64,000 bases of DNA, taken from positions 14,287 to 78,286 of the forward strand of contig JAFUSD010000002.1 of the NCBI GenBank assembly GCA_017480685.1. Direction: 5' to 3'. The DNA comes from Bacteroidaceae bacterium (GTDB lineage Bacteria; Bacteroidota; Bacteroidia; Bacteroidales; Bacteroidaceae). Below the pieces are notes generated by a model. It did no database searches and was not told the DNA's origin. It was given only the letters and a program-made list of their open reading frames with translations. Of this stretch, positions 12,280 through 61,972 are shown in pieces. The position numbers were made by a program, and so were the translations under genes. The stretch's first letter is position 1; each line of letters starts with the position of its first letter.

Positions 12280-12302
12280 GGGTTGTGAGTGTTTTGGGGG
12301 GG

Positions 12303-23447: not shown

Positions 23448-23623
23448 ATTTACAGTTATCGTGTGTACTGACGTCGCACAACTACCTGCAAAGTTACGAA
23501 ACTTTAGCAAAAGACGACTCCATTCTTTAACTTTTCAGTCGTCATGGCGTCATTTTTTTTCTCAGCAGGCCCCACTTTTCATCATAATCGGGCAAAAGAC
23601 TTGGCTGTGTCGGGAAAAAGTCG

Positions 23624-27165: not shown

Positions 27166-27245
27166 CACACTGAAAGCAGTACAATCACACTGAAAGCAAT
27201 ACAATCACACTGAAAGCAGTACAATCACACTGAAAGCAATAAATA
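27166..27245 (+). repeat. 20-bp tandem repeat x4 occupying the predicted 5' UTR of the DUF1599 gene
   Basis: cacactgaaagca(g/a)tacaat x4, with alternating g/a variants (units 1 and 3 are identical; 2 and 4 match until the last unit degenerates). Confidence 0.95.
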
Positions 27246-33026: not shown

Positions 33027-33132
33027 GCCCCTCTTCTCCCGCCCACAGCAATGCTTCGCCTCCTGGCAAAAGCTCTATAACGAATGTCGTTCAGGCGCGG
33101 CATACACCTTCTCTTATTTTTTTCGCGCGTGT

Positions 33133-33233
33133 GAGAATATCCTCGCGGGCTGTTGAGGATATCCTCGCGGGCTGTTGAGGATATCCTTGCGGGCTGTTGA
33201 GGATATCCTCGCAGTGTGCCAGAGGATATCGAT
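33133..33233 (+). repeat. 22-bp tandem array, GAGGATATCCTC-core family, ~4.5 units
   Basis: gagaatatcctcgcgggctgtt / gaggatatcctcgcgggctgtt / gaggatatccttgcgggctgtt / gaggatatcctcgcagtgtgcca / gaggatatcgat. Lies between the dnaG stop and the pyrE promoter. Confidence 0.95.
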
Positions 33234-33372
33234 TGTTGCAGTGTTTTCCGTATCATCAAACTGACCCTCCATTTTCTCTTCTTTATACACGACGTAACCA
33301 TCATAATGAGCAAAATCAGAGTGTTGTTGCAGTTTTATAGGACAAAAGGAGGGCGGAATGAAAACAAATTTG

Positions 33373-34057: not shown

Positions 34058-34320
34058 AAGGGGAACCCCTCTCTTATCTCCCCCAAGGGGAGAGGATACC
34101 ATCCGGATGGATAAAGCTCCTCCCCTTCGGGGAGGCGGGGGAGAGGTTAAAGGGAATAGAAGGGGAGTTAAAGGGAAGTTAAAGGGACGAATGTCACCAT
34201 CCGGGGAGAAGACCCCCTCCCCCTGCGAGTACTCCCCCTTTCAGGTGGGAGAGTCCATCCGGATGGAAATAACCTCCCCTAACCCCTCCCAAGGAGGGGA
34301 ATTCCATCCGGATGGTAATA
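34058..34320. repeat. GC-rich mosaic hairpin element, family copy B (largest): three CCATCCGGATGG palindromes plus several G5/C5 stem-loops
   Basis: Contains ctcccc-caa-ggggag, cctcccc-ttcg-ggggagg and cccctcc-caa-ggagggg hairpins. ccatccggatgg appears at ~34094, ~34253 and ~34300. gttaaaggga occurs x3. It starts right at the pyrE stop. Confidence 0.85.
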
Positions 34321-34330
34321 ACCAAATAAT

Positions 34331-34415
34331 TAAATAGTACATAAATCGTAAATAGTAAATCGTCAAATCGTAAATAACAATAAATCGTAAAATCGTAAAT
34401 CCCATAGGTTCCTAT
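34331..34415. repeat. AAAT(C/A)GT heptamer tract (AT-rich family), about 9 units
   Basis: taaatagtacataaatcgtaaatagtaaatcgtcaaatcgtaaataacaataaatcgtaaaatcgtaaatcccatagg. Confidence 0.85.
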
Positions 34416-34437
34416 CCATTCCTAAAACAATAATACC

Positions 34438-37338
34438 ATGAAACGAACATGCATCTTGTTTGCAGCAATGTGTCTGTACACACTTGCATTTGCTGCACCC
34501 TCGGCGAACTATCAGCTCATCATCTCACTGACCGATGGTGGCAAGTTGACCTACCACCTAAGCGACCAGCCGAAACTGCTCTGGGAGGGCGACTCGCTCT
34601 ATGTGAGCGCAGTCGGAAACAAGATAGAAAGCATGACGCGCAAGGGCCTGCGCAGCCTGCAGTTCATAGCAAACGAGGAACCTGCACCAAGCCCCGACGA
34701 TGTGAACGGTGACGGACAAACCGACACGCAAGACGTGCTGTCGGTCTATGAATACATGCAGAGCGGCAACAGCCCGCAAGCCGAACGACTCGACGTGAAT
34801 GGCGACGGGACGGTCGATACACAGGATGTGCTGCACATCTACGAATCGATGATGACTGCCGAAGCACCGGCAAGGGCCGGCAATGCTCCCGACCAGATGG
34901 TAGTGGTCACCACCCGGGGTAACCTCGTGGCATACACCATCACGAGTGCTACGGCACTGAACTACAGCACAGCCACCGACACCATCACCATAGGCAACGG
35001 TGTGGAACTGGCTACATACGAATGTGGCGAGATAAAGCAGATATACTTCGACAACAAGGCATCGGTGGATGCCGACCCATACATCGTACCCACAACCGAC
35101 GACTACATCAACCCCAACCTCGTCGATCCTGAAAAGACAGCGTATGAAGTCGTACAACTCGACACCACGCTCTGTCGCGCACGCATAAGGTTTGAAGGCG
35201 ATGCGCCGCAGATGTATGTCGGTCAAATCTACATATCACACACCGACAGCATCCACCTGGGCATGTATCTGCTCACCTTCGACCCCGTCGACAGCCATCA
35301 GGTCGATATCCGCTACCGCCCGGCTCAACTGCAAGAGATGGTGTATAACTGCGAAATAACCCTGAGCTCGTTCCCCTGTGGCGACAGCTACTTCGACAGC
35401 AACGAGGCCTACGTGAAGTTGCGCGACACACGCCGGCGTGAGGAAGGTGTCAACTTCGACCAGTTTGAATCGCTCGAACCGGTGAAGGTGATAAAACAAG
35501 TGGCCGACATATTCAAAAACAGCGGTTTCAGCTTCGGCAGCGACTACTCTACAGAACTGGGAGTGGAACTGAAAGTGCTTGTGGGCGAACCCAAGACACA
35601 AGAAAACTGGATACGAGAAATAGCATCAAAACTGGAATACGTAGGACTCGTCTTCAGAGGCAAGCAGACGATAACCAGCAAAAGCAAAGTCAAGATCGAA
35701 GCAGGAATCGAACTGCCCGACATAGACAGGCAGATATCGCCCGACCTGTTCACACACCATCAGTATTTCCAGGTGGGGCCGGCTCCGGTCGTGCTTTCGT
35801 ATGATGCATCGATATGGGCTATGCTGAAATCCGAACTGAAAATACAAATGATGTCGGCAGTGACCGTGACCGAAGGATGCGAAATAGCAATCGGAGCCGA
35901 ATACGATGCAGCAAAAGGTACCCTCTCGCCCATCAACAGCGTGAAATACACATACAAAATCGATGACAATCAAATCGATGTACTCAACGGACACGCACAC
36001 TTCCGCGCATCGCCCTATCTGAGGCTCAACCTGTATCTGTATCTGGTGCTCGGATTCCATATCGACATCATGCCATTCCTCGACGGGACATTCGACGGCA
36101 TGATGTACAACAACAAACCATTCTGGCAAGGCAGCATCGACATGGGACTCAACTTCCGTGCAGGATTCTTTGTAGAAGGACCACGATTCAACTTCGTAAA
36201 GCGCGACGACAACAGCAAGATGCCTATCGACCAGATATCTTACACCTCGCCCGACCTCATACGCAAAAACATAATTCACTATCCCGACACAATGGTCGAT
36301 ATCGACTCGCTGAAACGTGAATATGCCGCCTACGACACCAGCAGCAGTTTCCGTTTCAAGACCTACGGACGAATACACCCCGAGAGCAATATAAGCAAAT
36401 TGTGGGAATCGACCGGCAGCTCATCGGTGAACCAGCAGTGCTTGAGCGACTTCCCATACGAAGAGTGGCAGAGCGTGAACCCCGAAGACCTCGTAATCGA
36501 GACCGGAGGTGATGAGGGTGATGATGGCGACTACAATGTTATATACACCAAGGTACGCAACCGTATGCCTGCCAAGATACGGGCTATGTTGCCACAACTG
36601 CCACATGCACCCATCATCAGGGTGAAACGCAAGATAGAACCATCAAGCCAACTGAGGCCTATAGGTCCGTCGTGGGCTACACAAGCTGGCGATGATGGCA
36701 TAATCAACACCACATTTACCTCGCCAGTACCGCTCGGATACCGCACCGTGCTGCGCACCAGCCTGCTCGACGGAGAAGGCAACCCGCTGCTCGATATGGA
36801 CCGCGAAATGCCGTGGGAAATCCAGAACTACGATGCCGCCATTTCCGGCACAATGGGATTCTCGGGCACCATAGAATATCGCAACGGAGGAAAGCACATA
36901 CACGAAGTGGAGCACATCGATGGAGGTACGCTGGAATACACGTGGAACGGCACCGACACCCACATGAAGATGTCGATACAAGGTATGCAGATGGAATACA
37001 CCTACAAAGGCGAATTCATCTGCCCGATAGCCGCCATAATGGGCTACAACGTAAACCACAACCCTGGAGTCTTCATCAGCGACATACAAGAGTATGACGT
37101 GATGCGATGGATGAACAAAGAACTGGGAGTGGAATTCCCTGGCATCAGTTTCGGCGAGACATTCTATCTGGGACATGATTGCAAGACCCTGCGCGAGGTG
37201 ACCCCCGAAGGAAGCGGCACGACGGTGATGTATCAAAACCTCATCTTAAGGCTGCTCTCGACGGAAGGCGATATGAACGTGACGAGCCTCAAGATATACG
37301 ACGAGATAGAAAACCCGATAACCATTACCCGACATTGA
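34438..37338 (+). CDS. Large secreted protein of unknown function with an N-proximal dockerin-type duplicated Ca-binding repeat
   Basis: 966-aa ORF with signal peptide MKRTCILFAAMCLYTLAFA. DVNGDGQTDTQDVLSVYEYM and DVNGDGTVDTQDVLHIYESM lie 11 residues apart (nt ~34696-34860). I recognise no domain in the rest. Confidence 0.7.
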   Translation: MKRTCILFAAMCLYTLAFAAPSANYQLIISLTDGGKLTYHLSDQPKLLWEGDSLYVSAVGNKIESMTRKGLRSLQFIANEEPAPSPDDVNGDGQTDTQDVLSVYEYMQSGNSPQAERLDVNGDGTVDTQDVLHIYESMMTAEAPARAGNAPDQMVVVTTRGNLVAYTITSATALNYSTATDTITIGNGVELATYECGEIKQIYFDNKASVDADPYIVPTTDDYINPNLVDPEKTAYEVVQLDTTLCRARIRFEGDAPQMYVGQIYISHTDSIHLGMYLLTFDPVDSHQVDIRYRPAQLQEMVYNCEITLSSFPCGDSYFDSNEAYVKLRDTRRREEGVNFDQFESLEPVKVIKQVADIFKNSGFSFGSDYSTELGVELKVLVGEPKTQENWIREIASKLEYVGLVFRGKQTITSKSKVKIEAGIELPDIDRQISPDLFTHHQYFQVGPAPVVLSYDASIWAMLKSELKIQMMSAVTVTEGCEIAIGAEYDAAKGTLSPINSVKYTYKIDDNQIDVLNGHAHFRASPYLRLNLYLYLVLGFHIDIMPFLDGTFDGMMYNNKPFWQGSIDMGLNFRAGFFVEGPRFNFVKRDDNSKMPIDQISYTSPDLIRKNIIHYPDTMVDIDSLKREYAAYDTSSSFRFKTYGRIHPESNISKLWESTGSSSVNQQCLSDFPYEEWQSVNPEDLVIETGGDEGDDGDYNVIYTKVRNRMPAKIRAMLPQLPHAPIIRVKRKIEPSSQLRPIGPSWATQAGDDGIINTTFTSPVPLGYRTVLRTSLLDGEGNPLLDMDREMPWEIQNYDAAISGTMGFSGTIEYRNGGKHIHEVEHIDGGTLEYTWNGTDTHMKMSIQGMQMEYTYKGEFICPIAAIMGYNVNHNPGVFISDIQEYDVMRWMNKELGVEFPGISFGETFYLGHDCKTLREVTPEGSGTTVMYQNLILRLLSTEGDMNVTSLKIYDEIENPITITRH

Positions 37339-37346
37339 TTGACATA

Positions 37347-37386
37347 AAATCAGGGCTGATGCCAAAAGCGGTATCAGCCCTGATTT
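37347..37386. terminator. Bidirectional intrinsic terminator between convergent genes
   Basis: aaatcagggctgat-(11 nt)-atcagccctgattt with A/T runs on both sides. Confidence 0.75.
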
Positions 37387-37433
37387 GTCATGATGAGGAA
37401 TGTATAGCAGTCGGTATTATAGCAATGCAATGA

Positions 37434-38591
<1,158 letters not shown>

Positions 38592-38677
38592 TTAAGTTAA
38601 TACTTTCTTATAATATCACAGTTATTTTATAATATCGAGGATTTGTCGGTATGAACAAACGACGGGTCATCGTGCTG

Positions 38678-38685
38678 CAAAATTA
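38678..38685 (-). promoter_or_regulatory. -7 promoter box TAATTTTG upstream of the 37434-38579 esterase
   Basis: The minus strand reads aaattacTAATTTTGcagcac about 100 nt upstream of the ATG at 38579. Confidence 0.4.
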
Positions 38686-38833
38686 GTAATTTATTTTTAA
38701 TGTCATGCCAATATATCAAAATAAATCTGCAAAAAGAGCACGAGATATGCAAGAAATCAAAGTATGTGGATGAAACAAAAGGCTCATTTTGCAAATAATG
38801 CGTGAAAAACTTCTTCATACGAAAAGAAGGTAG

Positions 38834-38841
38834 TATCTTTG
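38834..38841 (+). promoter_or_regulatory. -7 promoter box TATCTTTG upstream of the 38888 lipoprotein gene
   Basis: aggtagTATCTTTGcatag, 47 nt upstream of the ATG. Confidence 0.5.
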
Positions 38842-38887
38842 CATAGTCAAAAACAATGACAGAAAAACCACGACAGCCATTAAGAAT

Positions 38888-39658
38888 ATGAACAAGACAG
38901 CATATACAGCACTTGCCATTATTTGTGTATCGGCTTTGATGATAGCATGCAATGGTACGGGTAGCAGGGAAGATGGGAATATGAGTGGGTCGGTAATCAT
39001 CGACACACTGCCCGGGGTGCGTATCTATACCCCGCAGTTCAGCAGTATCGACCTACGATGCGGCACCATGCCCGACACGTCGGAGCGGAACGTGGTGTTC
39101 TGTGCCGAAGCAGCGTTTACTCATGCCCTGCTCGACACATTCAGCCACTCAAACATCGACGGCAACCACGTGAGCGGCGGACGATGGTATGAGGGTGCTA
39201 CATGCATCGAGACCTCTGAGCGCGTGGGCAACACCGGAGGCTTTGTGTGGTATGACAACCATTTCGAGTTTCTGCCCGACACGGCAGCAGCCGAGGCAGC
39301 ACTACGACGGGCAGCCGAGGCGGGTGGCATGGGGTTCTGCCAGGAATACATCATTCACGAAGGCCACTACCAACCCAATACCCGCACCGAAAACCCACGG
39401 TTCAACCGCGTGGAGATGTATCGTGTGCTGGCACTCATCGCCGACACACTGCGCATCGTTGAGAACACGGAGCCCATGCACTTCTCCGACTTCGTGCCCC
39501 TGCTGCTGAAAGCCAGGGTGATGGAAGCACTGTATATGGACATGGGTGCCGGATGGAATCACTCGTGGTATCGAACCGCTGACGGCACCGTACACGAGAT
39601 TCACCCCACCGACTTCAAGTCGCAGTATTGCACCAACTGGATTACATTCTACGAATAA
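38888..39658 (+). CDS. Hypothetical lipoprotein; its last 12 codons lie inside the left copy of the 42-bp direct repeat
   Basis: 256-aa ORF with lipobox ALMIAC. I recognise no family. Confidence 0.6.
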   Translation: MNKTAYTALAIICVSALMIACNGTGSREDGNMSGSVIIDTLPGVRIYTPQFSSIDLRCGTMPDTSERNVVFCAEAAFTHALLDTFSHSNIDGNHVSGGRWYEGATCIETSERVGNTGGFVWYDNHFEFLPDTAAAEAALRRAAEAGGMGFCQEYIIHEGHYQPNTRTENPRFNRVEMYRVLALIADTLRIVENTEPMHFSDFVPLLLKARVMEALYMDMGAGWNHSWYRTADGTVHEIHPTDFKSQYCTNWITFYE

Positions 39659-39659
39659 A
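39618..39659 (+). repeat. Left copy of the perfect 42-bp direct repeat bounding the AT-rich insertion
   Basis: agtcgcagtattgcaccaactggattacattctacgaataaa is identical to 43102-43143. Confidence 0.95.
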
Positions 39660-39812
39660 TTTTATTAAATGAGAAGAAAACGTGTTCATCAGATTATCAA
39701 TATTGTAGATTAGAAAATATTTATAATATTATTTGGTAGTATTTTTATTAACTCCTCCAAATATGAAGAATTATCGAACCAGATACGCATACATTGGACT
39801 ATTATCGGACTT

Positions 39813-41279
39813 ATGATATATGCTGGATTTTGGGGCATAAAGAACTTAAACAGTAATAATGTGGTGCATCTTTCGATAAATAGAATTTTAAATTCAATAT
39901 ATTTTATTGGCTGGCTGGAGGTTCTGTATGTTATACTACAGATATTTGAAATACTACCTAAACACAGTCATTTCTTTGTATTTACAGGAAACTTCGATAA
40001 TCCCGCTATCGTTGCAATGCTTCTCTCTTTTTGCATACCCATCGGCTTATATCGTATAATGCATGCCAAAAGTACTATGTATAAATCAATATGGATAAAT
40101 ACCACCATCATTATATTTATTGTAATTATAATATCAGGAAGTCGTACTGGTATTATATCATCAATAATATCTACATTATATTTAAAGAAACAAATAAGAC
40201 CAAATAAGTTGTAACGTAGAAGATTTACATTATGGATAATTACTATATTAGCATTTATCATACTCTTAATTCTCTATACAATTAAAAAAGATTCAGCTAT
40301 TGGGAGATTATATATTTGGCGCATATCTTTGCAAATGATTACAGACAAACCATTATTAGGGTTTGGATTAGATGGATTTGCATCTCACTTTATGTGGTAT
40401 CAATCAAAATTCTTATCGGCACATCCGAATTCTCCATTTTTGCTCTTAGCAGATAATATCACTAATCCATTTAATGAATTCCTTTATATTGGTATAAGTT
40501 ATGGAACGATTGGTTTAATATGCACTATCATTTTTTTTACATTAATGTGGCAACAAATATCACTAATTAAATGTAAACAAAAGAAAATCCTATCAGCATT
40601 GTACCTTATTCTCATGTGTTGGTGTATGTTTTCGTATCCCCTGCATGTTCCTTTTGTGTGGATTATTATTTTACTTATTACGATTACAATTTTGAGCCGA
40701 CTTCATCATAAATCATTGATTGTCATTTCACATACAGTTATAATAACAAGTATAATTGTAATACTTTCATCTATATATTCAGTGAGGTTCAGAGCCGAAT
40801 GGGGTGTCGTGCAAGCCCATTCACTTTTTGGACATGAAGATACTGCCATATTAGATTTTAAGCGATTATATAAACATCTTTCGAAAGACGGTAGATTCCT
40901 ATATAATTACGGAGCAGAACTACACATTGCTGAACGTTATGAAGAAAGCAAAAATATACTAAACGAATGTGCTTCATTATTAAATGACTATAATCTTCAT
41001 ATGATAATGGGAGATGATTATATGCAGATTTGTAAGTCTGACTCTGCAATTCTTCATTACAGCATTGCATCAAATATGGTACCAAACAGGTTGCTTCCTC
41101 TGTACCAAATTATGAATATATATTCAAATCAAGGAGACTCTATTAATGCCAAGAAGATTGCATTGATTATCCTAAATAAACGTGTAAAAATCAGATCAAA
41201 TGTAACAGATTTTATAATCAGGAAAGCAATTGAAGTACAATCCGATGATACAACAATAAGAGAAGAACAGTACATTTAA
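39813..41279 (+). pseudogene. O-antigen-ligase/Wzy_C-like membrane protein with a C-terminal TPR-like region, interrupted by a single in-frame TAA (40212-40214)
   Basis: ORFs 39813-40214 and 40329-41279 are in the same frame, and the 114 nt between them contain no further stop (RRRFTLWIITILAFIILLILYTIKKDSAIGRLYIWRISLQ). The downstream part reads DKPLLGFGLDGFASHF...NPFNEFLYIGISYG. A possible additional frameshifted N-terminus begins at the ATG 39763. Confidence 0.65.
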
Positions 41280-41320
41280 TAAATATTACACAATGTGTTT
41301 GTGGTTTTAAAAAAAAAGTG

Positions 41321-41328
41321 TATCTTTG
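41321..41328 (+). promoter_or_regulatory. -7 promoter box TATCTTTG inside the islet, upstream of the 41353 gene
   Basis: aaagtgTATCTTTGcacatc, 25 nt upstream of the ATG. Confidence 0.5.
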
Positions 41329-41352
41329 CACATCAAATAAACAAATTGTCAC

Positions 41353-42006
41353 ATGAACTCTATTAATAAATTAAAATTATTATCATATACCGTATCAATA
41401 ATAACCTCTGTAATTATCACATATTTTGCATGCTCTTCTGATGAAGAAGATGATGATATGTATTATTATAGTCTCAACATTAATGACATTATACCACGTA
41501 CACGCAGTACAGTAGGAGATGCTTTCATATCAAATGATATTCCTACAAGAGACTATTGCGCAATTTGGTGTATTTGGCAACTATGTGGTGGTTCTGACTA
41601 TTATCAAGGTAAGGTTGAAGCAAAAGCTGGTGAACTACTTGGGTGGACAAGAGAAAAACACAGGCCACTTACCCAACCAGAAATATCCATATTAGCAGCT
41701 GCATTTAATAAACCAAGCAACTGGTATCCGAATACAGAGGTAACTAATAATAATGACACAATACCGAATGGAAATGCAATTAAGGCTGTTTATGACTTAA
41801 TAAATAATAATAATATAAAGGCAGATAAAGATAGTACATATGTTTTACCTTACGAGATATTAGTAGTTTCTAATTTTAATCATTGCCAAATAGGGAAAAA
41901 GATAAACTTCTTCACTGGAACGATTTATATATTTTCAAACGAACATAAAAATGGTAAATCAAAGTACGACATACCTCTATCCACAGTTACAGACGTATAT
42001 CTTTAA
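41353..42006 (+). CDS. Hypothetical lipoprotein with a Cys...His arrangement (possible cysteine peptidase/amidase fold)
   Basis: 217-aa ORF. Lipobox ITYFAC followed by acidic SSDEEDDD. Cys cluster RDYCAIWCIWQLCGG (C69/C73/C78) and NFNHCQIG (H177). Confidence 0.6.
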   Translation: MNSINKLKLLSYTVSIITSVIITYFACSSDEEDDDMYYYSLNINDIIPRTRSTVGDAFISNDIPTRDYCAIWCIWQLCGGSDYYQGKVEAKAGELLGWTREKHRPLTQPEISILAAAFNKPSNWYPNTEVTNNNDTIPNGNAIKAVYDLINNNNIKADKDSTYVLPYEILVVSNFNHCQIGKKINFFTGTIYIFSNEHKNGKSKYDIPLSTVTDVYL

Positions 42007-42008
42007 AT

Positions 42009-43073
42009 ATGACATTAACAATGACCGAAATACACATAAGACACAAATTCACCATGATGCTATACCTCGCAATGACATCTATGGGATGGGCACAGAATGT
42101 TGTTCCTACATATCAGCTTGATAGCATTATAAGGAACGATGACCTCAACCTCAAGAAGATTGCATATCGCTACGACAACATCGGAAACGTGACCATGAAG
42201 AAATACTACATTAAAAGGAATAATGTCTGGTTGCTATGCGACAGTACGGTATATACATACATAGGGAATAACAAAACTAGTGCCACACTCTATGGTATTG
42301 AAGAAAATGAGGTTGTACCATTTAGTCTGACAGAATACTATTATAATAATGGTGTGCTATATAAAGAAACCAAATATAGTTTTGCAGCATCTACATGGCT
42401 TCCTATACAAGAAAAAGACTATGAATACACCGATGATATGATAAGCATAGAAAGGACCTACTCATTGGAGAAAGGACGCAAATCATTAGTCACTACAACC
42501 CAGTATTCATACAACGACGGATTGCTAAGAAGCAAACAAACCGACCATCATTTAGGTGATGGAACCACAAACCCATGCATGCGATGGATCTATACATGGA
42601 GTGATGGAACCACTCCTAAATGTACACAAATAAAGATATGTGAATACAACCTGCATCAATGGCAAATATCAGAGCAAGACACATTTATATACGATGAAGC
42701 AGGTGTACTAATCGGGAAGTATGACGAAGTTGGATGGGGAAATGGTGTAATCGATTTCATACAGAAAACAGAATTCTGCTATGACATATCAGGCAATATC
42801 ATAAGTATACGATATTATAATAAGACGGGCGAAAATGCATGGCAGCCAGTGTACGACACACATTTTATGTATAATAGCAACATTCCACTTGACAATATTG
42901 TAAACACCACACTTGTGCGGGAACTATGGGGAATAGATATCGGTATACCAACGCATTCCTTTGCGATACAACACTGCAACAACATGCCGACAGCTATAGT
43001 GACTCTTGATGCTCCTCATCCCGACAACATAGATGAATACACACAATATTATTACTCGATATTAGAAGAGTAA
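42009..43073 (+). CDS. Small YD/RHS-repeat-like secreted protein
   Basis: 354-aa ORF. The signal peptide probably starts at MMLYLAMTSMGWAQ (ATG ~42054). Recurring YD-type repeats: IAYRYDNIGNV, EYYYNNGVLYKE, YSYNDGLLRS, FIYDEAGVLIGKY, FCYDISGNIISIRYY. Confidence 0.6.
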   Translation: MTLTMTEIHIRHKFTMMLYLAMTSMGWAQNVVPTYQLDSIIRNDDLNLKKIAYRYDNIGNVTMKKYYIKRNNVWLLCDSTVYTYIGNNKTSATLYGIEENEVVPFSLTEYYYNNGVLYKETKYSFAASTWLPIQEKDYEYTDDMISIERTYSLEKGRKSLVTTTQYSYNDGLLRSKQTDHHLGDGTTNPCMRWIYTWSDGTTPKCTQIKICEYNLHQWQISEQDTFIYDEAGVLIGKYDEVGWGNGVIDFIQKTEFCYDISGNIISIRYYNKTGENAWQPVYDTHFMYNSNIPLDNIVNTTLVRELWGIDIGIPTHSFAIQHCNNMPTAIVTLDAPHPDNIDEYTQYYYSILEE

Positions 43074-43101
43074 CATTAGATTAATACTATATATTCATCT
43101 T

Positions 43102-43143
43102 AGTCGCAGTATTGCACCAACTGGATTACATTCTACGAATAAA
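43102..43143 (+). repeat. Right copy of the perfect 42-bp direct repeat
   Basis: Identical to 39618-39659. Non-coding here. Confidence 0.95.
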
Positions 43144-43169
43144 CAAAAGACAAGATAAGACGATAAACA

Positions 43170-43640
43170 ATGAAGACTGAAAGCAACGTAAAGACAGTGA
43201 TGGCACCGCAAGATGTGGTGTACGCACGGCTGTCGGACCTCACGAACGTGAGCAAAGTGCGCGAACGACTCGACGACCCTGACTTCCAGCAGCAGTTGAG
43301 CCAGCAGATGCCCGACGGACACAAGATCGACGAGATACGCGAGCGGCTCGACTCTATGCAGTTTGATGCCGACTCGGTGAGCATGGATGTGCCGCCAATT
43401 GGCAACATAGCAATACGCATCATAGAGCGCGAACCCGAGAAGTGCATCAAGTTCGAATCGGTCAACTCGCCAATACACTTCTACCTGTGGATTCAACTGC
43501 TGCCGCTGACCGACACATCGAGCAAGATGCGCCTCACGGTAGATGCCGACGTGAACCCATTCATGCGTATGATGGTAGAGAAACCGCTGAAGGAAGGAGT
43601 GGAGAAGCTGGCCGACATGCTGGCAAGCCTGCCGTATTAA
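43170..43640 (+). CDS. SRPBCC-like (START/polyketide-cyclase fold) small protein, tentative
   Basis: 156-aa ORF. Its length and the N-terminal pattern (VKTVMAPQDVVYARLSDLTN) resemble SRPBCC ligand-binding proteins. The assignment is weak. Confidence 0.5.
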   Translation: MKTESNVKTVMAPQDVVYARLSDLTNVSKVRERLDDPDFQQQLSQQMPDGHKIDEIRERLDSMQFDADSVSMDVPPIGNIAIRIIEREPEKCIKFESVNSPIHFYLWIQLLPLTDTSSKMRLTVDADVNPFMRMMVEKPLKEGVEKLADMLASLPY

Positions 43641-43657
43641 AGAAAAGAGGAAAAAAG

Positions 43658-43800
43658 ACCCTCTCCCCAACCCTCCCCCGTCATCCCCCTGCGGGGGATT
43701 GAGGGGGGACAAATCGGTTCTTCTCCCCCTCGCACTCCCCCAGGGGAGAGGGGGAGGGAGGCCATCCAAATGAATCTCCTCATAAAATGGGGGAGAGATG
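43658..43800. repeat. GC-rich mosaic hairpin element, family copy C
   Basis: Contains atccccc-tgc-gggggat and ctcccc-cag-gggag hairpins, a degenerate ccatccaaatga half-palindrome, and aaatgggggag shared with copy A. It lies right after the SRPBCC stop. Confidence 0.75.
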
Positions 43801-43847
43801 TATGAAAGAGAGAGAGGGTGCGTAATTAATTATTCATTATATTAGGA

Positions 43848-45182
43848 ATGAACAAACTTTGGACAAAAAACGTTGAAATGACCGATGAAATCGAGCGTTT
43901 CACCGTAGGTCGCGACCGCGAGATGGACCTCTATCTCGCACCTTACGACGTGCTTGGCTCGATGGCTCACATCACGATGCTCGAGTCGATAGGGCTGCTG
44001 AGCAAATCGGAACTCGACCAACTGCTCGTGGAACTGAAAACAATCTACGACACCTGCGTGCGCGGGGAGTTCAAGATAGAGGACGGAGTGGAGGATGTGC
44101 ACTCGCAAGTGGAGCTGATGCTCACACGCCGGCTGGGCGATGTGGGAAAAAAGATCCACTCGGGACGCTCAAGGAACGACCAGGTGCTCGTCGACCTCAA
44201 ACTCTTCATCCGCCAACAACTGCGTGAAATTGTGGAACTGACCGACACGCTGTTCCGCCACCTCATCAAGCGGAGCGAAGAATGTAAAGACATACTCATG
44301 CCAGGATATACCCACCTGCAGGTTGCCATGCCCTCATCGTTTGGATTGTGGTTTGGAGCGTATGCTGAAAGCCTTGTCGACGATATGCAATACCTGCTGG
44401 CTGCATGGCGCATCACCAACCGCAACCCGCTGGGCTCGGCTGCAGGATATGGCAGCTCGTTCCCGCTCAACCGACAGATGACCACCGACCTGCTGGGGTT
44501 CGACTCGATGGACTACAATGTGGTGTATGCACAGATGGGTCGTGGCAAGACTGAGCGCAACGTGGCCTTCTCGCTCGCAAGCGTGGCAGGCACACTGGCC
44601 AAGTTGGCGTTCGATGCATGTATGTTCAGCAGTCAGAACTTCGCATTCGTACACCTGCCCGACAACTGCACCACCGGGTCGAGCATCATGCCCCACAAGA
44701 AAAACCCCGACGTCTTTGAGCTCACACGTGCCAAATGCAACAAACTGCAGGCACTGCCACAGACCGTCATGATGATAATGAACAACCTGCCGTCGGGCTA
44801 CTTCCGCGACCTGCAAATCATAAAGGAGACATTCCTCCCTGCATTCGACGAACTGAAGGACTGCCTGCGCATGGCTTCCTACATCATCGAGCGTATGGAC
44901 GTGAACCCCGACATACTGTCCAACCCGATATACGACAACATGTTCTCCGTGGAGGAGGTGAACCGCCTGGCAGCAGCCGGAATGCCCTTCCGCGATGCAT
45001 ACCGCAAGGTGGGGCTCGACATCGAGGCTCATCAGTTCACGCCCGACAAGAACATACACCATACCCACGAGGGTAGCATAGGCAACCTGTGCAACGACCG
45101 CATAGCGCTACTTATGGACAATATCCTCGGCCAGTTCAACTTCAGTAAAGTAGACAATGCAATACAGACGCTCAGGAAATAG
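43848..45182 (+). CDS. argH: Argininosuccinate lyase
   Basis: 444-aa ORF. Fumarate-lyase signature GSSIMPHKKNPD, plus SGRSRNDQV and YTHLQVAMP. Confidence 0.95.
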   Translation: MNKLWTKNVEMTDEIERFTVGRDREMDLYLAPYDVLGSMAHITMLESIGLLSKSELDQLLVELKTIYDTCVRGEFKIEDGVEDVHSQVELMLTRRLGDVGKKIHSGRSRNDQVLVDLKLFIRQQLREIVELTDTLFRHLIKRSEECKDILMPGYTHLQVAMPSSFGLWFGAYAESLVDDMQYLLAAWRITNRNPLGSAAGYGSSFPLNRQMTTDLLGFDSMDYNVVYAQMGRGKTERNVAFSLASVAGTLAKLAFDACMFSSQNFAFVHLPDNCTTGSSIMPHKKNPDVFELTRAKCNKLQALPQTVMMIMNNLPSGYFRDLQIIKETFLPAFDELKDCLRMASYIIERMDVNPDILSNPIYDNMFSVEEVNRLAAAGMPFRDAYRKVGLDIEAHQFTPDKNIHHTHEGSIGNLCNDRIALLMDNILGQFNFSKVDNAIQTLRK

Positions 45183-46128
45183 TGGCATACAGTTGCCGGT
45201 GTTGTCGCTCGGATTATGGCACAACTTCGGAGCCGACGACCCCTACGACGTGGCCCGCGATATGGTGCTCACGGCTTTCGACCGTGGCATCTGCCATTTC
45301 GATTTGGCCAACAACTACGGCCCGCCACCCGGAAGTGCAGAGCTTACATTCGGGCGCATCATGAAAGAAGAACTACGCAGCCACCGCGACGAGATGTTCA
45401 TTTCGTCGAAGGCAGGTCACGACATGTGGCCTGGGGTATATGGCACTGGTTCGTCGCGCAAGAACATCATTGCATCATGCAACCAGAGCCTGCAGCGAAC
45501 CGGTCTTGACTATTTCGACGTGTTTTATTCTCACCGCTACGATTCCTCGACCCCAATCGAAGAGACCATGCAGGCACTTGTAGATTTGGTGCATCAGGGC
45601 AAGGCATTGTATGTAGGTATTTCGAAATATCCTGCCGAGCAGCAGCTGGAGGCCTACAACTACCTGCTGCGCGAACATGTGCCATGTCTGCTCAGCCAGT
45701 ATCGCTGTTCGCTGTTCGACCTCAAAGCACGCCGCGACAACTTTGCCGGAGCCGTGGGTGCCGGAAGCGGAATCATCTGCTTCTCGCCCTTGGCGCAAGG
45801 CTTGCTCACCGGCAAGTATTCTGACTGCATACCGGCCGACAGCCGTGTGGCAAAACACAGTCCGTTTCTCACCCAGTCGCACATTACACCCCAACGCATC
45901 GAAGCAGCCCGAAAGCTCGGTGAAATCGCAAAAAAACGAAATCAGACGCTTGCTCAGATGGCGCTGGCATGGATACTGGCCGACGAGCGGGTGACATCGG
46001 TCATAATGGGAACATCAAGTGTAAAGCAATTGGAAAGCAATATCGAAGCATTAGATAATACTGTTTTCAGCAATGAAGAGCTTAAAACCATCGATGAAAT
46101 CGTTAATAATCCGCAAATATCGTTCTGA
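45157..46128 (+). CDS. Aldo/keto reductase (YghZ / L-glyceraldehyde-3-phosphate reductase-like)
   Basis: 323-aa ORF. MQYRRSGNSGIQLPVLSLGLWHNFG and FDLANNYG are typical AKR motifs. It overlaps the argH end by 26 nt. Confidence 0.9.
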   Translation: MQYRRSGNSGIQLPVLSLGLWHNFGADDPYDVARDMVLTAFDRGICHFDLANNYGPPPGSAELTFGRIMKEELRSHRDEMFISSKAGHDMWPGVYGTGSSRKNIIASCNQSLQRTGLDYFDVFYSHRYDSSTPIEETMQALVDLVHQGKALYVGISKYPAEQQLEAYNYLLREHVPCLLSQYRCSLFDLKARRDNFAGAVGAGSGIICFSPLAQGLLTGKYSDCIPADSRVAKHSPFLTQSHITPQRIEAARKLGEIAKKRNQTLAQMALAWILADERVTSVIMGTSSVKQLESNIEALDNTVFSNEELKTIDEIVNNPQISF

Positions 46129-46702: not shown

Positions 46703-48175
46703 ATGACACACACAGGCCATACATTGAAAGACAAAACGGCACGCGGGTTGCTGTGGGGCTTCATCAGTAGCAGCTCCATGCAGGTGTTGAACGTCGTGTT
46801 CGGCATCGTGCTCACATTCTGTCTGTCCAGCGAGGATTATGGCATGATGGCAGTGCTCAGCATCTACTCGGCCATAGCGGCATCGCTGCAAGACAGCGGG
46901 TTCGTGGCTGCACTTACCAACAAGCCCAGACCCACACACCGCGACTACAACTCGGTCTTCTGGTTCAACATTTCGTGTAGCGCCTTTATATACATTGTCT
47001 TGTGGTTCTGTGCTCCACTCATTGCCGACTACAACCACGATCCACGGCTCATACCACTCTCGCGATACACGTTCATCGGTTTCTTTGTGGCAAGCTTCTC
47101 AATCACTCCGAGGGCCATTCTTTTCAAGCAGATGCGGGTGAAAGAACAGACCATCATCAACCTCGTGGCACTCATCGTCTCTGGCATCGTGGGCATAAGC
47201 ATGGCATTGTGCAAGATGGCATTCTGGAGCATTGCCACCCAAAGCATTGTGTTTGTAGGAATAACGGCACTGCTCAGTTGGCATCTCTCGGGTTGGCGCC
47301 CTTCGTTTTCCATCAGTCTCCGACCCATAAGCCAGATGCTGCCTTTCAGCTTCAAACTGCTCATCACCAACATTTTTTTCAACATCAACAAGTTTGCATT
47401 CGAGAGCGTGCTCGGCAATTTCTATCCTAAGACCGACATCGGATTCTACTCGCAAGCCAACAAATGGAATCAGATGGGCAGCCAGACCATAAGCGGCATG
47501 GTGCAAAGTGTGGCACAACCCATGTTTGTGGAAGTAGGAAACGACACTGAACGTCAACGCCGTGTGTTTATCAAGATGCTGCAGTTCACCGCCTTCGTGG
47601 CGTTTCCTGCACTGTTCGGACTCTCGCTCATTGCCCACCAGCTCATAAGCCTGCTGCCACAGCGATGGATGCCTGCAGCCGACTACCTGCAGCTGCTCGC
47701 TATAGCCGGAGCATTCATGCCACTGGCTACTCTCTACTCCAACTTCATCATTGCACAGGGAAAGTCTAACATCTACATGTGGAACATGATAGCACAAAGC
47801 ATCGTAATACTGCTCAACATCTTTGCCGTGCAATACTTCCACATCCACATCCTGAACCTGTCGGGCATTTGGCTCATGATAGCAGTCTACATAACGGCCA
47901 ACATCGTGTGGATACCCATCTGGCACATATTTGTATACCGCCAGATACAGTTGCAACCATGGGGAGCTCTGCGTGCAATACTGCCGTCGATGGCCGCTGC
48001 AGCCATTGCAATGATTGCCACACACTACGCCACAGCGGCCATCACATCAAGCCACCTGCTGCTACTCATCATGCGCATACCTATGGCTGCAGCAATATAT
48101 ATATGCACCATGCGCATCACTCGCTCCGACATTCTCGACGAATGCATCAACTACATACGGCACCGCAATCACTGA
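46703..48175 (+). CDS. Polysaccharide/oligosaccharide flippase (Wzx-like, MOP superfamily)
   Basis: 490-aa ORF with ~12-14 TM helices and the N-terminal pattern KTARGLLWGFISSSSMQVLNVVFGIVL, typical of Wzx/RfbX-like proteins. Confidence 0.8.
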   Translation: MTHTGHTLKDKTARGLLWGFISSSSMQVLNVVFGIVLTFCLSSEDYGMMAVLSIYSAIAASLQDSGFVAALTNKPRPTHRDYNSVFWFNISCSAFIYIVLWFCAPLIADYNHDPRLIPLSRYTFIGFFVASFSITPRAILFKQMRVKEQTIINLVALIVSGIVGISMALCKMAFWSIATQSIVFVGITALLSWHLSGWRPSFSISLRPISQMLPFSFKLLITNIFFNINKFAFESVLGNFYPKTDIGFYSQANKWNQMGSQTISGMVQSVAQPMFVEVGNDTERQRRVFIKMLQFTAFVAFPALFGLSLIAHQLISLLPQRWMPAADYLQLLAIAGAFMPLATLYSNFIIAQGKSNIYMWNMIAQSIVILLNIFAVQYFHIHILNLSGIWLMIAVYITANIVWIPIWHIFVYRQIQLQPWGALRAILPSMAAAAIAMIATHYATAAITSSHLLLLIMRIPMAAAIYICTMRITRSDILDECINYIRHRNH

Positions 48176-48176
48176 T

Positions 48177-48298
48177 AAGGATATCCTCAACGCACCGCAA
48201 GGATATCCTCAACACACCGCAAGGATATCCTCAACGCACCGCAAGGATATCCTCAATGCATTGCAAGGATATCCTCAACGCACCGCAAGGATATCCTC
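48177..48298 (-). repeat. 22-bp tandem array, GAGGATATCCTC-core family, 5.5 units (largest), reverse orientation
   Basis: The forward strand reads aaggatatcctcaacgcaccgc x5.5, with cores at 48177, 48199, 48221, 48243, 48265 and 48287. The reverse complement is gaggatatccttgcggtgcgtt. It starts 1 nt after the flippase stop codon. Confidence 0.95.
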
Positions 48299-48348
48299 AC
48301 GTTTACTCATACCACCTTACAGCCGGTGTCGTTTCATAAGAATCGTGT

Positions 48349-48466: not shown

Positions 48467-49429
48467 CTAAAGCGATTGCAACATACGTTTCAGCACCACC
48501 TGGGCCGAAATCTCGCGATTGGCGGCTTCAGGAATGACGATGCTGGTGGGTGCTTCTATGACCGAGTCGGTCACTATCATGTTTCGACGCACGGGCAGGC
48601 AGTGCATGAAATAAGCATTGTCAGTCACAGCCATGTGGCGGTCGTCCACAGTCCACGAGCGGTCGGTGTTGAGAATCTGGCCATATTGCTCCGGACGTGT
48701 CACACCCGGGCAGCTCCAGTTTTTGGCATAGATAAAGTCTGCCCCCTCGAATGCATGCATCTGGTCGTAGTCTACGGGTGTATCGCCAATGAACTGCGGG
48801 TCAAGCTCATAGCCTTCGGGATGGGTGATTACAAACTCTACATCAGCAGCACGCATCCATTCGGCAAACGAGTTTGGCACTGCTTGAGGCAGAGCCTTGG
48901 GGTGTGGCGCCCATGTGAGCACCACCTTCGGGCGTTCCTTGCGTTTGAACTCCTCGATGGTGATGAGGTCGGCAAAAGCCTGCAGGGGATGCACCGTGGC
49001 ACTCTCCATGAAGAAGACCGGGCGTCCGCTGTAGCGTATGAACTGGTTGAGGATGCGTTCCTCGTAGTCGTCGGCACGATTTTGGAAGGTGGCGAAACTG
49101 CGCACACCGATGATGTCGCAATAGCATCCCATGACCGGTATGGCCTCGAGCAGGTGCTCACTCTTGTCGCCATCCATGATGACTCCACGTTCCGTCTCGA
49201 GCTTCCATGCCCCCTGATTGACATCGAGCACGATGACGTTCATGCCGAGGTTCATGGCTGCCTTCTGGGTGCTGAGGCGGGTGCGCAAACTGTTGTTGAA
49301 AAAAATGAGCAGGCACGTCTTGTTCTTGCCCAACGAATCCCAGGCATAGCGATCGTTCTTCACTTCCAAGGCCTCCTGTAATGCAGTGTGGAGGTCGCCT
49401 ATATCGGTTACGTGTTGAAAAAGTTTCAT
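48467..49429 (-). CDS. argF: N-succinyl/N-acetyl-ornithine carbamoyltransferase (Bacteroidota ArgF' type)
   Basis: 320-aa ORF. FFNSLRTRLSTQKAAMNLGMNVIVLDVNQGAWKLETERGVIMDGDKSEHLLEAIPVMGCYCDIIGVRSF closely follows the Bacteroides argF' pattern I recall. HCLPVRRN is also present. Confidence 0.9.
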   Translation of the reverse strand: MKLFQHVTDIGDLHTALQEALEVKNDRYAWDSLGKNKTCLLIFFNNSLRTRLSTQKAAMNLGMNVIVLDVNQGAWKLETERGVIMDGDKSEHLLEAIPVMGCYCDIIGVRSFATFQNRADDYEERILNQFIRYSGRPVFFMESATVHPLQAFADLITIEEFKRKERPKVVLTWAPHPKALPQAVPNSFAEWMRAADVEFVITHPEGYELDPQFIGDTPVDYDQMHAFEGADFIYAKNWSCPGVTRPEQYGQILNTDRSWTVDDRHMAVTDNAYFMHCLPVRRNMIVTDSVIEAPTSIVIPEAANREISAQVVLKRMLQSL

Positions 49430-49447
49430 TGTAGTGAGATTATTTAG

Positions 49448-49511
49448 GTTATGATTCAGTCGAAATATATGTTATGATTCAGACGAAATATGTTATGATT
49501 CAGTCGAACAG
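49448..49511. repeat. ~22-bp tandem triplication that includes the stop codon and last codons of the PfkB kinase gene
   Basis: gttatgattcagtcgaaatatat / gttatgattcagacgaaatat / gttatgattcagtcgaacag. The third copy supplies ...LFD-TGA of the 49500-50450 gene. Confidence 0.9.
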
Positions 49512-50450
49512 AGAGGTCTTCTGAGGCGGGTTGATGTAGTTCTCGGCAAACTCCTTCGATATTGAGTTGTTGAGACTCTGACATACATGAGCCGAGAAAT
49601 CGACGGCAGGGCGCATGATGCTATCCCACTGCTGCTCAGTCATGTTATGGATGTTGGCACGAGTGATGCCCTCGCGCACCAGGCCGAACACAATTCCGGC
49701 ATTGAAGTTGTCACCAGCTCCGATAGTGCTCACCGTAGGCACAGACTTCACACTATAGTCTTTTTTCACCTGCGGCGAGATGAGGCGTATGCTGCCACCC
49801 CCATCGGTGCAAATCATGTTCTTGCAATAAAACTCCACCTCCTTATGGAAGACACGGTCGGGGTCGTTGTCACCAAACATGTTGTCAATATCCTCTGTAG
49901 AGCCACGGACAATATCTGCAAACTCCAGGTTCTCGAGTATGTCGGGATAGAGTTTCATAGCCTCGCCCTTGTGGCTGTTGCGGAAATTGAAGTCGTAGTA
50001 TATGATTGCCTCGCGTTCCTTGGCATAGTTCAGGAACTCAAGCACCTTGCTTCTCAATACCGGATTGAGCACAAAATAAGACCCCATGATTACAATGTCG
50101 TCGCGCTCTATGCGAGGCCAGATAACGTCGAGGCGGGCCTTGGGATAGTCTTTGTAGAACTCATATTCAGCATCATTCTGCTGGTTGAGCCATGCAAGAG
50201 ATATGGGTGTACGTCCGTCGTAGTATACGCATACGTTTTCGTTGTTGACGCCGTTGTCGGCCAGGAAGTCGAGTATGATGCGGCCCACGCGGTCGTTGCC
50301 TGTCTCACTGATGAATGTGACGTTGAGACCGAGGCGTCCGAGGGTAATGACTGAGTTGAATACCGACCCTCCGGGCACTGCGGCTGTGGGTTGTCCGTTC
50401 TTGAAGATGATGTCCATGATGGTCTCACCTATTCCTATTATCTTGCGCAT
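49500..50450 (-). CDS. PfkB-family carbohydrate kinase (fructokinase-like)
   Basis: 316-aa ORF. N-terminal GIGETIMDIIF...PGGSVFN and C-terminal DTIGAGDNFNAG-type motif (VSTIGAGDNFNAGIVFG). Confidence 0.85.
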   Translation of the reverse strand: MRKIIGIGETIMDIIFKNGQPTAAVPGGSVFNSVITLGRLGLNVTFISETGNDRVGRIILDFLADNGVNNENVCVYYDGRTPISLAWLNQQNDAEYEFYKDYPKARLDVIWPRIERDDIVIMGSYFVLNPVLRSKVLEFLNYAKEREAIIYYDFNFRNSHKGEAMKLYPDILENLEFADIVRGSTEDIDNMFGDNDPDRVFHKEVEFYCKNMICTDGGGSIRLISPQVKKDYSVKSVPTVSTIGAGDNFNAGIVFGLVREGITRANIHNMTEQQWDSIMRPAVDFSAHVCQSLNNSISKEFAENYINPPQKTSLFD

Positions 50451-50541
50451 ATAAAAAAGTGTTGAGTTATGTGGTAGTTAATGTATTTATTGCCTCTTTA
50501 TTAAATGTTTCCCCTATATCAGGTTTACTGACAGGCCTGTT

Positions 50542-51081
50542 TTAGTTACCGGCCAAAGCGTTGGTCAGTTGGTCGAATGTATCGACTTTTATCATAAAAC
50601 GGTCGAGGGGCTTGTTGACGGCACCCGCCTGCTGCATAGAGTCGAGCATGGCGAACAAACCGTCCCAGAAGTGGTCGACATTCCAGAATATCACTCGTTT
50701 GGTGCTGTTGCCTATCGATGCTTCGCCTATGACGGTGAATGCCTCGTCGAGTGTGCCGACACTGCCTGGCAATGCTACGAAGACATCGCTTATCTTCATC
50801 ATCCACGTCTTGCGGTCGGTGAGGTTCTCGGTGGGTATCTTGATGCCTATCTGCTGGCTCACCATATCTCGGTCGATAAGTATTTTTGGCACTACACCTA
50901 TCACGTTGATGCTTCCGGCGTGGCGCACCGCTGTGGCCACCGACTCCATCAGCCCGCAGCGTGCTCCGCCATATACCAGTGTGTGCCCGTTTTCGCCTAT
51001 CCAGCGACCCAGTTGCACGGCTGCATCATAGTATTGGGTGGGCAGTTTGTCGGACGACGAACAGAATACTCCAATCTTCAT
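50542..51081 (-). CDS. LOG-family / TIGR00730 Rossmann-fold nucleotide-binding protein
   Basis: 179-aa ORF with GGARCGLM and the PGSVGTLDE motif (PGGxGTxxE). Confidence 0.85.
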   Translation of the reverse strand: MKIGVFCSSSDKLPTQYYDAAVQLGRWIGENGHTLVYGGARCGLMESVATAVRHAGSINVIGVVPKILIDRDMVSQQIGIKIPTENLTDRKTWMMKISDVFVALPGSVGTLDEAFTVIGEASIGNSTKRVIFWNVDHFWDGLFAMLDSMQQAGAVNKPLDRFMIKVDTFDQLTNALAGN

Positions 51082-57582: not shown

Positions 57583-57818
57583 GATATATGATGAGTGATG
57601 ATTAATTAATATGATTAAGCAATAAGCGGGAGAATTTCCCCCTCATTCTGCAGCTGCGGGGCGACGAAAACGGCACGCACACACGTCAAGCCTGCTGAAA
57701 AGATACGAAATAATACGATATGCAGGTTGACTAAAGCACAACAAAATGCCCCGAAAGCCCGAAAAAAACGGCAAAAGCAAGAGCATGCATCCACCTGCCG
57801 GTATCGATGGCAGGAAAC

Positions 57819-57919
57819 AACGATATCCTCGCGGGCCGTTGACGATATCCTCGCAGGGCGTTGACGATATCCTCGCGGGCCGTTGACGATATCCTCGCAG
57901 GGCGTTGACGATATCCTCA
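57819..57919 (+). repeat. 22-bp tandem array, variant GACGATATCCTC core, 4.5 units with a 44-bp higher-order alternation
   Basis: aacgatatcctcgcgggccgtt / gacgatatcctcgcagggcgtt / gacgatatcctcgcgggccgtt / gacgatatcctcgcagggcgtt / gacgatatcctca. Lies in the divergent HTCS / thioesterase intergenic region. Confidence 0.95.
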
Positions 57920-58109
57920 TTTTTCACCACCCATATCAGTGCACCAAAACACTACCACCTACTGACTGCACCGACACCCACGCCGCCGCCCGCTGCGCCC
58001 CCCGTCGTTTTTACACCCGTTATGAAGAAAACGGACACTGACAGTCATGTTTTTTTGCCTCTGCATAAAAATAATACGCAATAAACATCCAGCATAATGA
58101 ATTATTTCG

Positions 58110-61936: not shown

Positions 61937-61972
61937 TGGTAAATAGTAAATTAGTAAATAGTAAATAAGACC

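Follow-up and report, generated by a model that had tools for sequence, protein, structure and literature searches.

A young, recombinase-free islet between 42-bp direct repeats at the 3′ end of a lipoprotein gene in an uncultured rumen Prevotellaceae species

The stretch of DNA analysed here, 64,000 nucleotides of contig JAFUSD010000002.1 (assembly GCA_017480685.1) and hereafter called the window, comes from an uncultured Prevotellaceae species of the rumen. It contains an AT-rich islet of 3,442 bp (39660..43101, plus strand; all coordinates are 1-based in the window) that sits at the 3′ end of a conserved lipoprotein gene, between two perfect direct copies of a 42-bp sequence. The islet is absent from the sister species, and the comparison documents a clean gain of 3,484 bp of foreign DNA at this gene end. 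It is a young, species-specific and fixed islet of orphan genes, one of which is decaying, and it belongs to a fairly ordinary kind of islet. As to its origin we favour, with a probability of roughly 0.5, a single reciprocal crossover between circular foreign DNA carrying the 42-mer and the 42-mer of the chromosome.

The 42-mer AGTCGCAGTATTGCACCAACTGGATTACATTCTACGAATAAA occurs exactly twice in the window, at 39618-39659 and 43102-43143, both times on the plus strand and without a mismatch. A third copy is absent from the window even at up to three mismatches, the expected number of matches being 0 (100 shuffles), and outside tandem arrays the 42-mer is the longest direct repeat present in two copies. 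Identity ends sharply at both ends of both copies; on direct reading, the 16-17 nt on either side are dissimilar. The left, attL-like copy (39618..39659) begins with the last two bases of codon 244 and continues through codons 245-256 (SQYCTNWITFYE) and the stop codon at 39656-39658 to one further base, and so supplies the last 12 codons and the stop of the lipoprotein gene. The right, attR-like copy (43102..43143) is non-coding and falls within the 96 bp that separate the last islet gene, which stops at 43073, from the following host gene, whose ATG is at 43170. It represents the former gene end, displaced but still next to the DNA that originally followed it; in two contigs of the sister species with the empty site, L023 and L044, the equivalent sequence runs on into the right flank. 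A perfect repeat with a coding left and a non-coding right copy had been reported in a preliminary description of this DNA, made from its letters alone, and the repeat search bears this out.

The gene that received the insertion (38888..39658, plus strand; GC 0.555, GC at third codon positions (GC3) 0.673) encodes a lipoprotein of 256 aa without a Pfam or NCBIfam match, which belongs to a conserved Bacteroidales family with 326 homologues. Its C-terminus KS(Q/R)YCTNWITFY is encoded by the repeat, and since the residues C248-F254 (CTNWITF) are invariant in the family alignment, no part of the gene is more conserved than the 42-mer. Among close relatives its positions 10, 11, 26 and 42 vary, position 26 being T in the window species and A in the sister species.

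The empty site, which the preliminary description had proposed to look for in related genomes, is present in the sister species. A scan of species-representative genomes with the lipoprotein as query identified L023 (‘uncultured Prevotellaceae bacterium’, 92% amino acid identity), in which 9979-10771 corresponds to window 38865-39657 (91.3% identity) and 10731-13624 to window 43101-46003 (83.9%). One 42-mer-like sequence with two mismatches aligns there with both copies of the window, and none of 39660-43101 is present. L044, a rumen contig from JGI, is an independent sequence of the same sister species, which has ~92% nucleotide identity to the window. Its positions 1-573 match window 39087-39659 and its positions 532-1092 match window 43102-43649, both at ~92%, with an overlap of exactly 42 bp. 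Because the window alignments overlap by 41-42 bp on a single 42-mer, the insertion amounts to 3,484 bp, that is, the islet together with one repeat. A more distant relative (L012, 76% amino acid identity) also lacks the islet, its lipoprotein gene being directly followed by SRPBCC, Lyase_1 and aldo-keto-reductase genes. For the window species itself the predicted empty-site junction reads ...CCGACTTCA + 42-mer + CAAAAGACAAG..., and the predicted circle junction, running from 43101 through the 42-mer to 39660, reads ...ATATTCATCTT + 42-mer + TTTTATTAAATGAG....

The inserted DNA is foreign in composition. GC is 0.325 in the islet versus 0.526 in the rest of the window; in 1-kb segments it ranges from 0.30 to 0.38 inside the islet, and outside it has a mean of 0.525 (standard deviation 0.029) and a minimum of 0.446. 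GC3 is 0.23-0.39 in the islet genes versus 0.59-0.73 in 11 host genes. The AT-richness noticed previously relative to both flanks is thereby confirmed as a large compositional break; a lack of compositional difference, which had been named as evidence to the contrary, was not observed. Taken together, the unameliorated composition, the identical repeats and the islet-free sister species at ~92% nucleotide identity mark the event as young. The same data make it very unlikely that the islet was present ancestrally and that the sister species lost it by deletion between the repeats. Recombination between 42-bp direct repeats does leave one copy, as in L023 and L044, but an ancestral islet would be expected to show amelioration, its repeats would have stayed identical although the same 42 bp differs at 2-7 positions between species, and the absence of the islet from L012, L023 and L044 (two sister species) and from all more distant relatives would call for repeated precise losses.

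Conspecific sequences were collected by searching for exact matches to the SRPBCC protein and to the 217-aa islet protein, with 23 contigs read for each. They derive from metagenomes such as ERZ28655130, ERZ28654209 and ERZ27256832 and from those behind GCA_017459305.1, GCA_017400845.1 and GCA_017484265.1. The islet with both repeats and the same gene order is present in 23/23 conspecific contigs, at this locus only, and is therefore fixed in the species; neither an empty site nor a second location was found among the 23. No conspecific lacks the arrangement, and so there is no sign of present mobility. An arrangement shared by all relatives, with diverged repeats, had been put forward beforehand as the mark of ancient, non-mobile DNA. 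Only its first half was found, among the conspecifics; the repeats are undiverged, which makes the insertion young rather than ancient. These contigs also dispose of the idea that the locus is an assembly or binning artefact on a chimeric contig. The sequences are indeed metagenome assemblies; the same junctions nevertheless recur in 23 contigs from different samples, assemblers and projects (ENA scaffolds, MEGAHIT k141 contigs and three metagenome-assembled genomes from NCBI), with strain-level single-nucleotide polymorphisms, and this recurrence in independent assemblies refutes an artefact.

Beyond the species, the suggestion that the same islet might be found at other loci drew a blank in JGI metagenome contigs, viral contigs, plasmids, phages and 5.8 billion proteins. 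In particular, a blastn search with 39600-43160 returned nothing from plasmids and phages, a 24-nt degenerate core of the 42-mer had 0 matches in viral contigs, and neither the 217-aa nor the 354-aa islet protein had a confirmed match in the latter. Protein searches with the islet genes identified no donor.

An insert that comes with one direct copy of a host segment and leaves the gene end restored is what a single reciprocal crossover produces. We infer that, in the ancestor of the species, a foreign circle with a copy of the 42-mer recombined with the chromosome within the 42-mer that ends the lipoprotein gene. Such an exchange would leave one hybrid copy on each side, of which the left would keep the gene whole and the right would consist of the displaced original end with the original downstream DNA. 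The catalyst was most likely a site-specific recombinase encoded off the islet, supplied in trans or subsequently lost; RecA acting on 42 bp of homology (Campbell-type integration) would yield the same product. The site-specific version is considered the more likely of the two, and is favoured by the length of 42 bp, which is typical of att repeats. The repeat ends 1 nt past the stop codon and covers the most conserved stretch of the gene, which is the pattern of elements that target and restore a conserved gene end. Furthermore, position 11 of the left copy (39628) is C in three strains (L002, L003 and L011) and the right copy keeps T. This is the outcome expected if the chromosome carried C, the element carried T, and the exchange took place to the right of this position. 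The left copy also has an A at position 25 in L010, and the right copy is invariant in the conspecifics read.

Today, the islet would then be a non-autonomous, integrase-less and att-flanked remnant that has become fixed, similar to a cis-mobilizable element (CIME). Two orphan genes for envelope or secreted proteins are still intact in it and are probably expressed from a Bacteroidota promoter of their own. The preliminary description had already read the locus as the footprint of att-type integration. The empty sites support an insertion at a gene 3′ end with a 42-bp duplication; the site-specific cause gains no such support from the core, the space for arm sites or a cognate element. The interpretation as an integration footprint is thus reasonable but unproven, and current mobility is unsupported.

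Variation within the species is unevenly distributed over the locus. Among 11 aligned conspecifics, the islet has 14 segregating sites in 3,442 bp, compared with 43 in 604 bp of the lipoprotein gene to its left. For the most divergent strain, L008, identity with the window is 94.4% to the left of the islet and 97.2% over the first 497 bp to its right, compared with 99.71% within it; in other words, the flanks differ by 2.8-5.6% and the islet by 0.29%. In the flanks, the difference closest to the left repeat is at 39580 (38 bp away) and the one closest to the right repeat is at 43162 (19 bp away). On one parsimonious reading of these sequences, the islet may have entered already diverged haplotypes as a repeat-bounded unit, through crossovers in or beside the 42-mer.

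On this mosaic could be built the idea that the islet is a still-active minimal cassette without a recombinase of its own. In this case, the 42-mer would be a live site for a recombinase encoded elsewhere, and the islet would excise as a circle, re-insert in other strains and so have hopped between diverged lineages. The switch from an islet 99.7% identical between window and L008 to flanks at 94-97%, within 38 bp and 19 bp of the repeats, would suit such a cassette, as would the left C and right T at repeat position 11 in three strains. We nevertheless hold it to be unlikely. The islet has the same position in all 23 conspecific contigs, none of which shows an empty site or a second location, the 42-mer core is unmatched in JGI metagenome and viral contigs, and the first islet gene is decaying, with nonsense alleles common to several strains. 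The mosaic itself can be explained by homologous imports that end at heterology, given the equally similar tracts elsewhere in the locus.

The single crossover favoured here has itself to be set against a number of observations that weigh against it. The mosaic of L008 also fits an alternative in which its flanks would have been overwritten by homologous imports from islet-free relatives, stopping at the heterology of the islet. L008 and the window are equally alike in the islet and in tracts at ~47400-48200 and ~48600-50600, and for this reason the claim that the islet is younger than the genome around it, which its low diversity might have invited, was dropped. No recombinase, transposase or excisionase open reading frame (ORF) and no match to a relaxase or transfer family was found in the islet by inspection of its ORFs and by library searches. 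The sole recombinase gene in the window lies 16 kb away and is a housekeeping one. The 42-mer has no dyad-symmetric core, and the gaps of 9 bp between the left repeat and the first ATG and of 28 bp between the last stop and the right repeat leave no room for arm sites. A 28-nt core of the 42-mer had 0 matches in JGI metagenome contigs. The databases named above yielded neither a cognate element or attP nor a circle junction or second target, the rest of the genome of the species being unsearched. Homologous lipoprotein genes were gathered from 80 metagenome loci and 7 others; 43 of the 80 extend at least 3.5 kb downstream, and a second copy of the locus's own 3′ 42-mer (at most 9 mismatches) was present in 0/50 of the loci thus available (43 metagenome loci plus 7). 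Accordingly, the gene end was rejected as a recurrent integration target, and L025-L027 have no integrase-sized ORF adjoining the lipoprotein gene. Finally, a 42/42 match between a donor of ~30% GC and a variable host coding sequence would be easier to account for if both copies were derived from the host.

This last consideration leads to a duplicative illegitimate insertion, which we regard as a serious but clearly less probable explanation. Here, a staggered break or a template switch during replication or repair at the gene end would have been accompanied by uptake of 3.4 kb of foreign DNA, and fill-in or re-entry 42 bp upstream would have copied 42 bp of the host. Both repeats would then be host-derived, without any recombination site or recombinase. 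The 42/42 identity and the abrupt loss of similarity beyond it follow automatically, and the lack of a recombinase, inverted repeats, core symmetry or space for arm sites is in keeping with such an event. So is its apparently singular nature, with 0/50 related loci affected and no other islet or 42-mer copy in the databases searched, and the same bases at the stop codon have been hit by an unrelated GC-rich element, similar to a miniature inverted-repeat transposable element (MITE), in L022 and L033. Typical target-site duplications, however, measure 2-15 bp, and we know of no transposition system that produces 42-bp duplications without terminal repeats and a transposase. The end of the repeat 1 nt past the stop codon would moreover be a coincidence, albeit one lessened by selection for an intact gene. 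Host-derived copies could also come about if a circle had acquired host DNA beforehand and then integrated in the Campbell manner.

Three genes were originally ascribed to the islet. Two of these, encoding proteins of 217 aa and 354 aa, are intact, and the first is a pseudogene in the window. This first gene (39669..41279, plus strand) encodes a membrane protein of the Wzy_C type (O-antigen ligase/polymerase-like) with a C-terminal extension. In the window it is interrupted by an in-frame TAG at 39711-39713 and a TAA at 40212-40214; L008, the only strain with an intact gene (536 aa), reads TGG and TTA at these codons. The TAG is found in 10/11 aligned strains (TGG in L008 only) and the TAA in 7/11 (TTA in L003, L008, L010 and L011). 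The products called range from 92 to 536 aa among the strains. The gene is thus decaying, with segregating nonsense alleles that represent pseudogenisation in progress. The Pfam score for Wzy_C is 24.8 bits for the window fragment, below the cut-off of 31.7, and 65.6 bits for the intact L008 protein. The best non-self homologue is 40% identical. The nearest homologues (L028 4845-7566 and L031 4126-6928) follow a Peptidase_C11 gene at the end of a five-gene operon, and homologues of the 217-aa and 354-aa genes are absent from these operons.

The second gene (41353..42006, plus strand) encodes an orphan 217-aa predicted lipoprotein with a lipobox (...YFAC) and an acidic run (SSDEEDDD), both read from the sequence, and is intact in every strain. 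Its ATG lies 32 bp downstream of the box TATCTTTGCA (41321..41330, plus strand), which had been picked out earlier as a promoter of the Bacteroidota -7 type. The box does fit the Bacteroidota motif TAnnTTTG, which occurs 19 times in the window versus 2.5 expected, mostly upstream of genes, and it probably functions as a promoter. In a search of 1.84 billion representatives, the 217-aa protein matched itself and four weak hits (E-values of 6e-6 to 2e-4), two of which are ~215 aa long. The third gene (42009..43073, plus strand) is an uninterrupted ORF in every strain, with start variants called at 350 and 354 aa. The orphan 354-aa product has a signal-like N-terminus and repeated YxYD/N-xxG-like motifs, read from the sequence as beta-hairpins, and among 5.8 billion proteins it matched its own cluster only. 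Neither of the two proteins has a Pfam, NCBIfam, PADLOC, PHROG or PDB match, and Rfam found nothing in the islet. Single-sequence AlphaFold (AF2) models of both are unusable, with predicted local distance difference test (pLDDT) scores of 31 (217 aa) and 35 (354 aa).

To the right of the islet, the host gene at 43170..43640 (plus strand) encodes a 156-aa SRPBCC/Polyketide_cyc2-like protein (Pfam PF10604, 28.7 bits against a cut-off of 27.4) and lies directly 3′ of the lipoprotein gene in L012, L023 and L044. The recombinase gene mentioned above (22527-23510, minus strand) is XerD-like, scoring 312 bits against TIGR02225, just below the cut-off of 329.6, and 290.7 against NF001399, for which the cut-off is 279. 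The protein scores far under the cut-offs for integron integrases, and its gene lies among the core genes dxs, secDF, trkAH, dnaG, tpiA, folE, argH and tdk. The 64-kb window contains neither a tRNA nor a tmRNA gene.

The neighbourhood to the left of the lipoprotein gene (window 34065-38865) is rearranged between relatives. An esterase gene block (~37339-38865, minus strand) is missing in L012 and L023, where a Dockerin gene overlaps the start of the lipoprotein gene. This Dockerin gene is reduced to its last ~190 bp in L008 and L023. In L008, most of the Dockerin gene and the esterase gene are gone, and the N-terminal part of the lipoprotein gene is L012-like. In another genome (L018 8001-13824), a 61%-identical lipoprotein homologue is followed by HEAT, GT2 and TPR/Wzy_C_2 genes; the association of the lipoprotein and Wzy-like families with such neighbours (L018, L028 and L031) may be functional.

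The spacer between the lipoprotein and SRPBCC genes of L012 holds a 21-bp tandem array (ACATAACAAACGCAACTGCAG; 8810-8930) at a place where the window has 26 bp. A GC-rich element with CCCCTCCGAAGGAGGGG-type palindromes is found in the window after the SRPBCC gene (43641-43800) and at 34271-34302, is absent from L008, and has only sub-threshold Rfam matches. Copies of this MITE-like element also occur in L022 (5450-5587) and L033 (2606-2690), at the stop codon of the same lipoprotein gene, the product of which is extended. The presence of an unrelated element at the same stop codon indicates that the spot tolerates or attracts insertions.

Further repeats are scattered over the intergenic regions of the window. 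Five arrays of 3-6 tandem 22-bp units (7480-7603, 21643-21744, 33111-33234, 48177-48300 and 57797-57942) have units that each contain the palindrome GAGGATATCCTC or a close variant of it (AAGGATATCCTC, GACGATATCCTC), and this dispersed family looks like arrays of putative binding sites. Additional tandem arrays at 10758-10907, 27166-27241 and 61829-61960 have units of 25, 20 and 22 bp, respectively.

The locus is a very clean illustration from nature of how a few orphan genes for surface proteins can be added to the genome of a gut or rumen Bacteroidota with its flanking genes undisturbed, and it comes with an empty site, a 42-bp duplication defined to the base and a population sample. If the 42-mer were a live site, a trans-acting recombinase would be shuttling recombinase-free cassettes in Prevotellaceae, which is undescribed for this group. 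Were the islet itself such a cassette, it would constitute a chromosomal counterpart in Bacteroidota of dif modules and integron cassettes, with a conserved protein-gene end as its site. If the 42-mer is not live, the islet is one more decayed islet, useful mainly for tracing a recent acquisition of genes and the continuing decay of a Wzy-like gene in an uncultured species.

Comparison with known systems sets several classes aside. The islet is not an autonomous integrative element, be it an integrative and conjugative element (ICE), an integrative mobilizable element (IME) or a prophage, given that 39660-43101 encodes no tyrosine or serine recombinase. This agrees with the preliminary description, which had found no integrase, transposase or excisionase on board, and none is present among the ORFs or family matches. 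A DDE transposon, insertion sequence or MITE was rejected on account of the 42-bp duplication and the lack of a transposase and of terminal inverted repeats, the two 80-nt ends of the islet aligning with a score of 16 at best versus a shuffle mean of 17.3. An integron cassette was likewise rejected, with no attC-like palindrome at the islet ends and no integron integrase.

The Bacteroides NBU1/NBU2-type integrative mobilizable elements and other tyrosine-integrase islands insert in the 3′ ends of tRNA or protein genes. The islet resembles these elements in a conserved gene 3′ end that is regenerated by the element, in the direct repeats at its borders and in its foreign composition. Such elements carry their own integrase and oriT/mob functions and have short common cores, of ~13-14 bp in the NBU type, whereas the islet has no integrase and a repeat of 42 bp. 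Campbell-type integration of a circle likewise places an insert between direct copies of a shared segment, and explains their perfect identity; in contrast, RecA-dependent integration would have had a very short homology of 42 bp to work with, and it does not account for how a circle came to carry 42 bp of host sequence.

The dif and pdif sites are 28-bp, dyad-symmetric sites for XerC/XerD. The 42-mer differs from these in lacking dyad symmetry and in being part of a coding sequence, and the 42-mer with 15 nt on either side contains no inverted arms of 6-11 nt (at most one mismatch) around a spacer of 4-9 nt. A Xer-dependent module (a dif module or an integrative mobile element exploiting Xer, IMEX) was rejected because of this lack of dif-like inverted arms. 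Such modules, described for Acinetobacter plasmids (PMC6449649), are moved by a tyrosine recombinase of the host. The islet shares with them a small recombinase-free cargo and short border sites, here of putative recombination function, and a XerD-like gene is present in the window.

The closest resemblance is to CIMEs, which are decayed remnants of ICEs or IMEs flanked by attL and attR, and were first described beside ICESt1/ICESt3 at the 3′ end of fda in Streptococcus thermophilus (PMC5704250). As in CIMEs, a small islet occupies the 3′ end of a protein gene, the direct repeats include the gene end, the gene is intact, and the cargo is unrelated to the neighbourhood and devoid of integration and transfer genes. 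The islet differs in belonging to the phylum Bacteroidota, in the putative att role of its repeats, which abut coding sequences (9 bp and 28 bp) and leave no space for arm sites, and in having no remnant of an integration or transfer gene. For this islet, neither a cognate ICE or IME nor an integrase was found, nor any other element occupying its site, there being no related element and no integrase at the 50 homologous gene ends, with the rest of the genome of the species unsearched. Two features of a CIME are present, namely border repeats that take in the end of the gene and a lack of genes for integration and transfer, and a cognate element was not found, so that the islet is best described as CIME-like rather than as a CIME.

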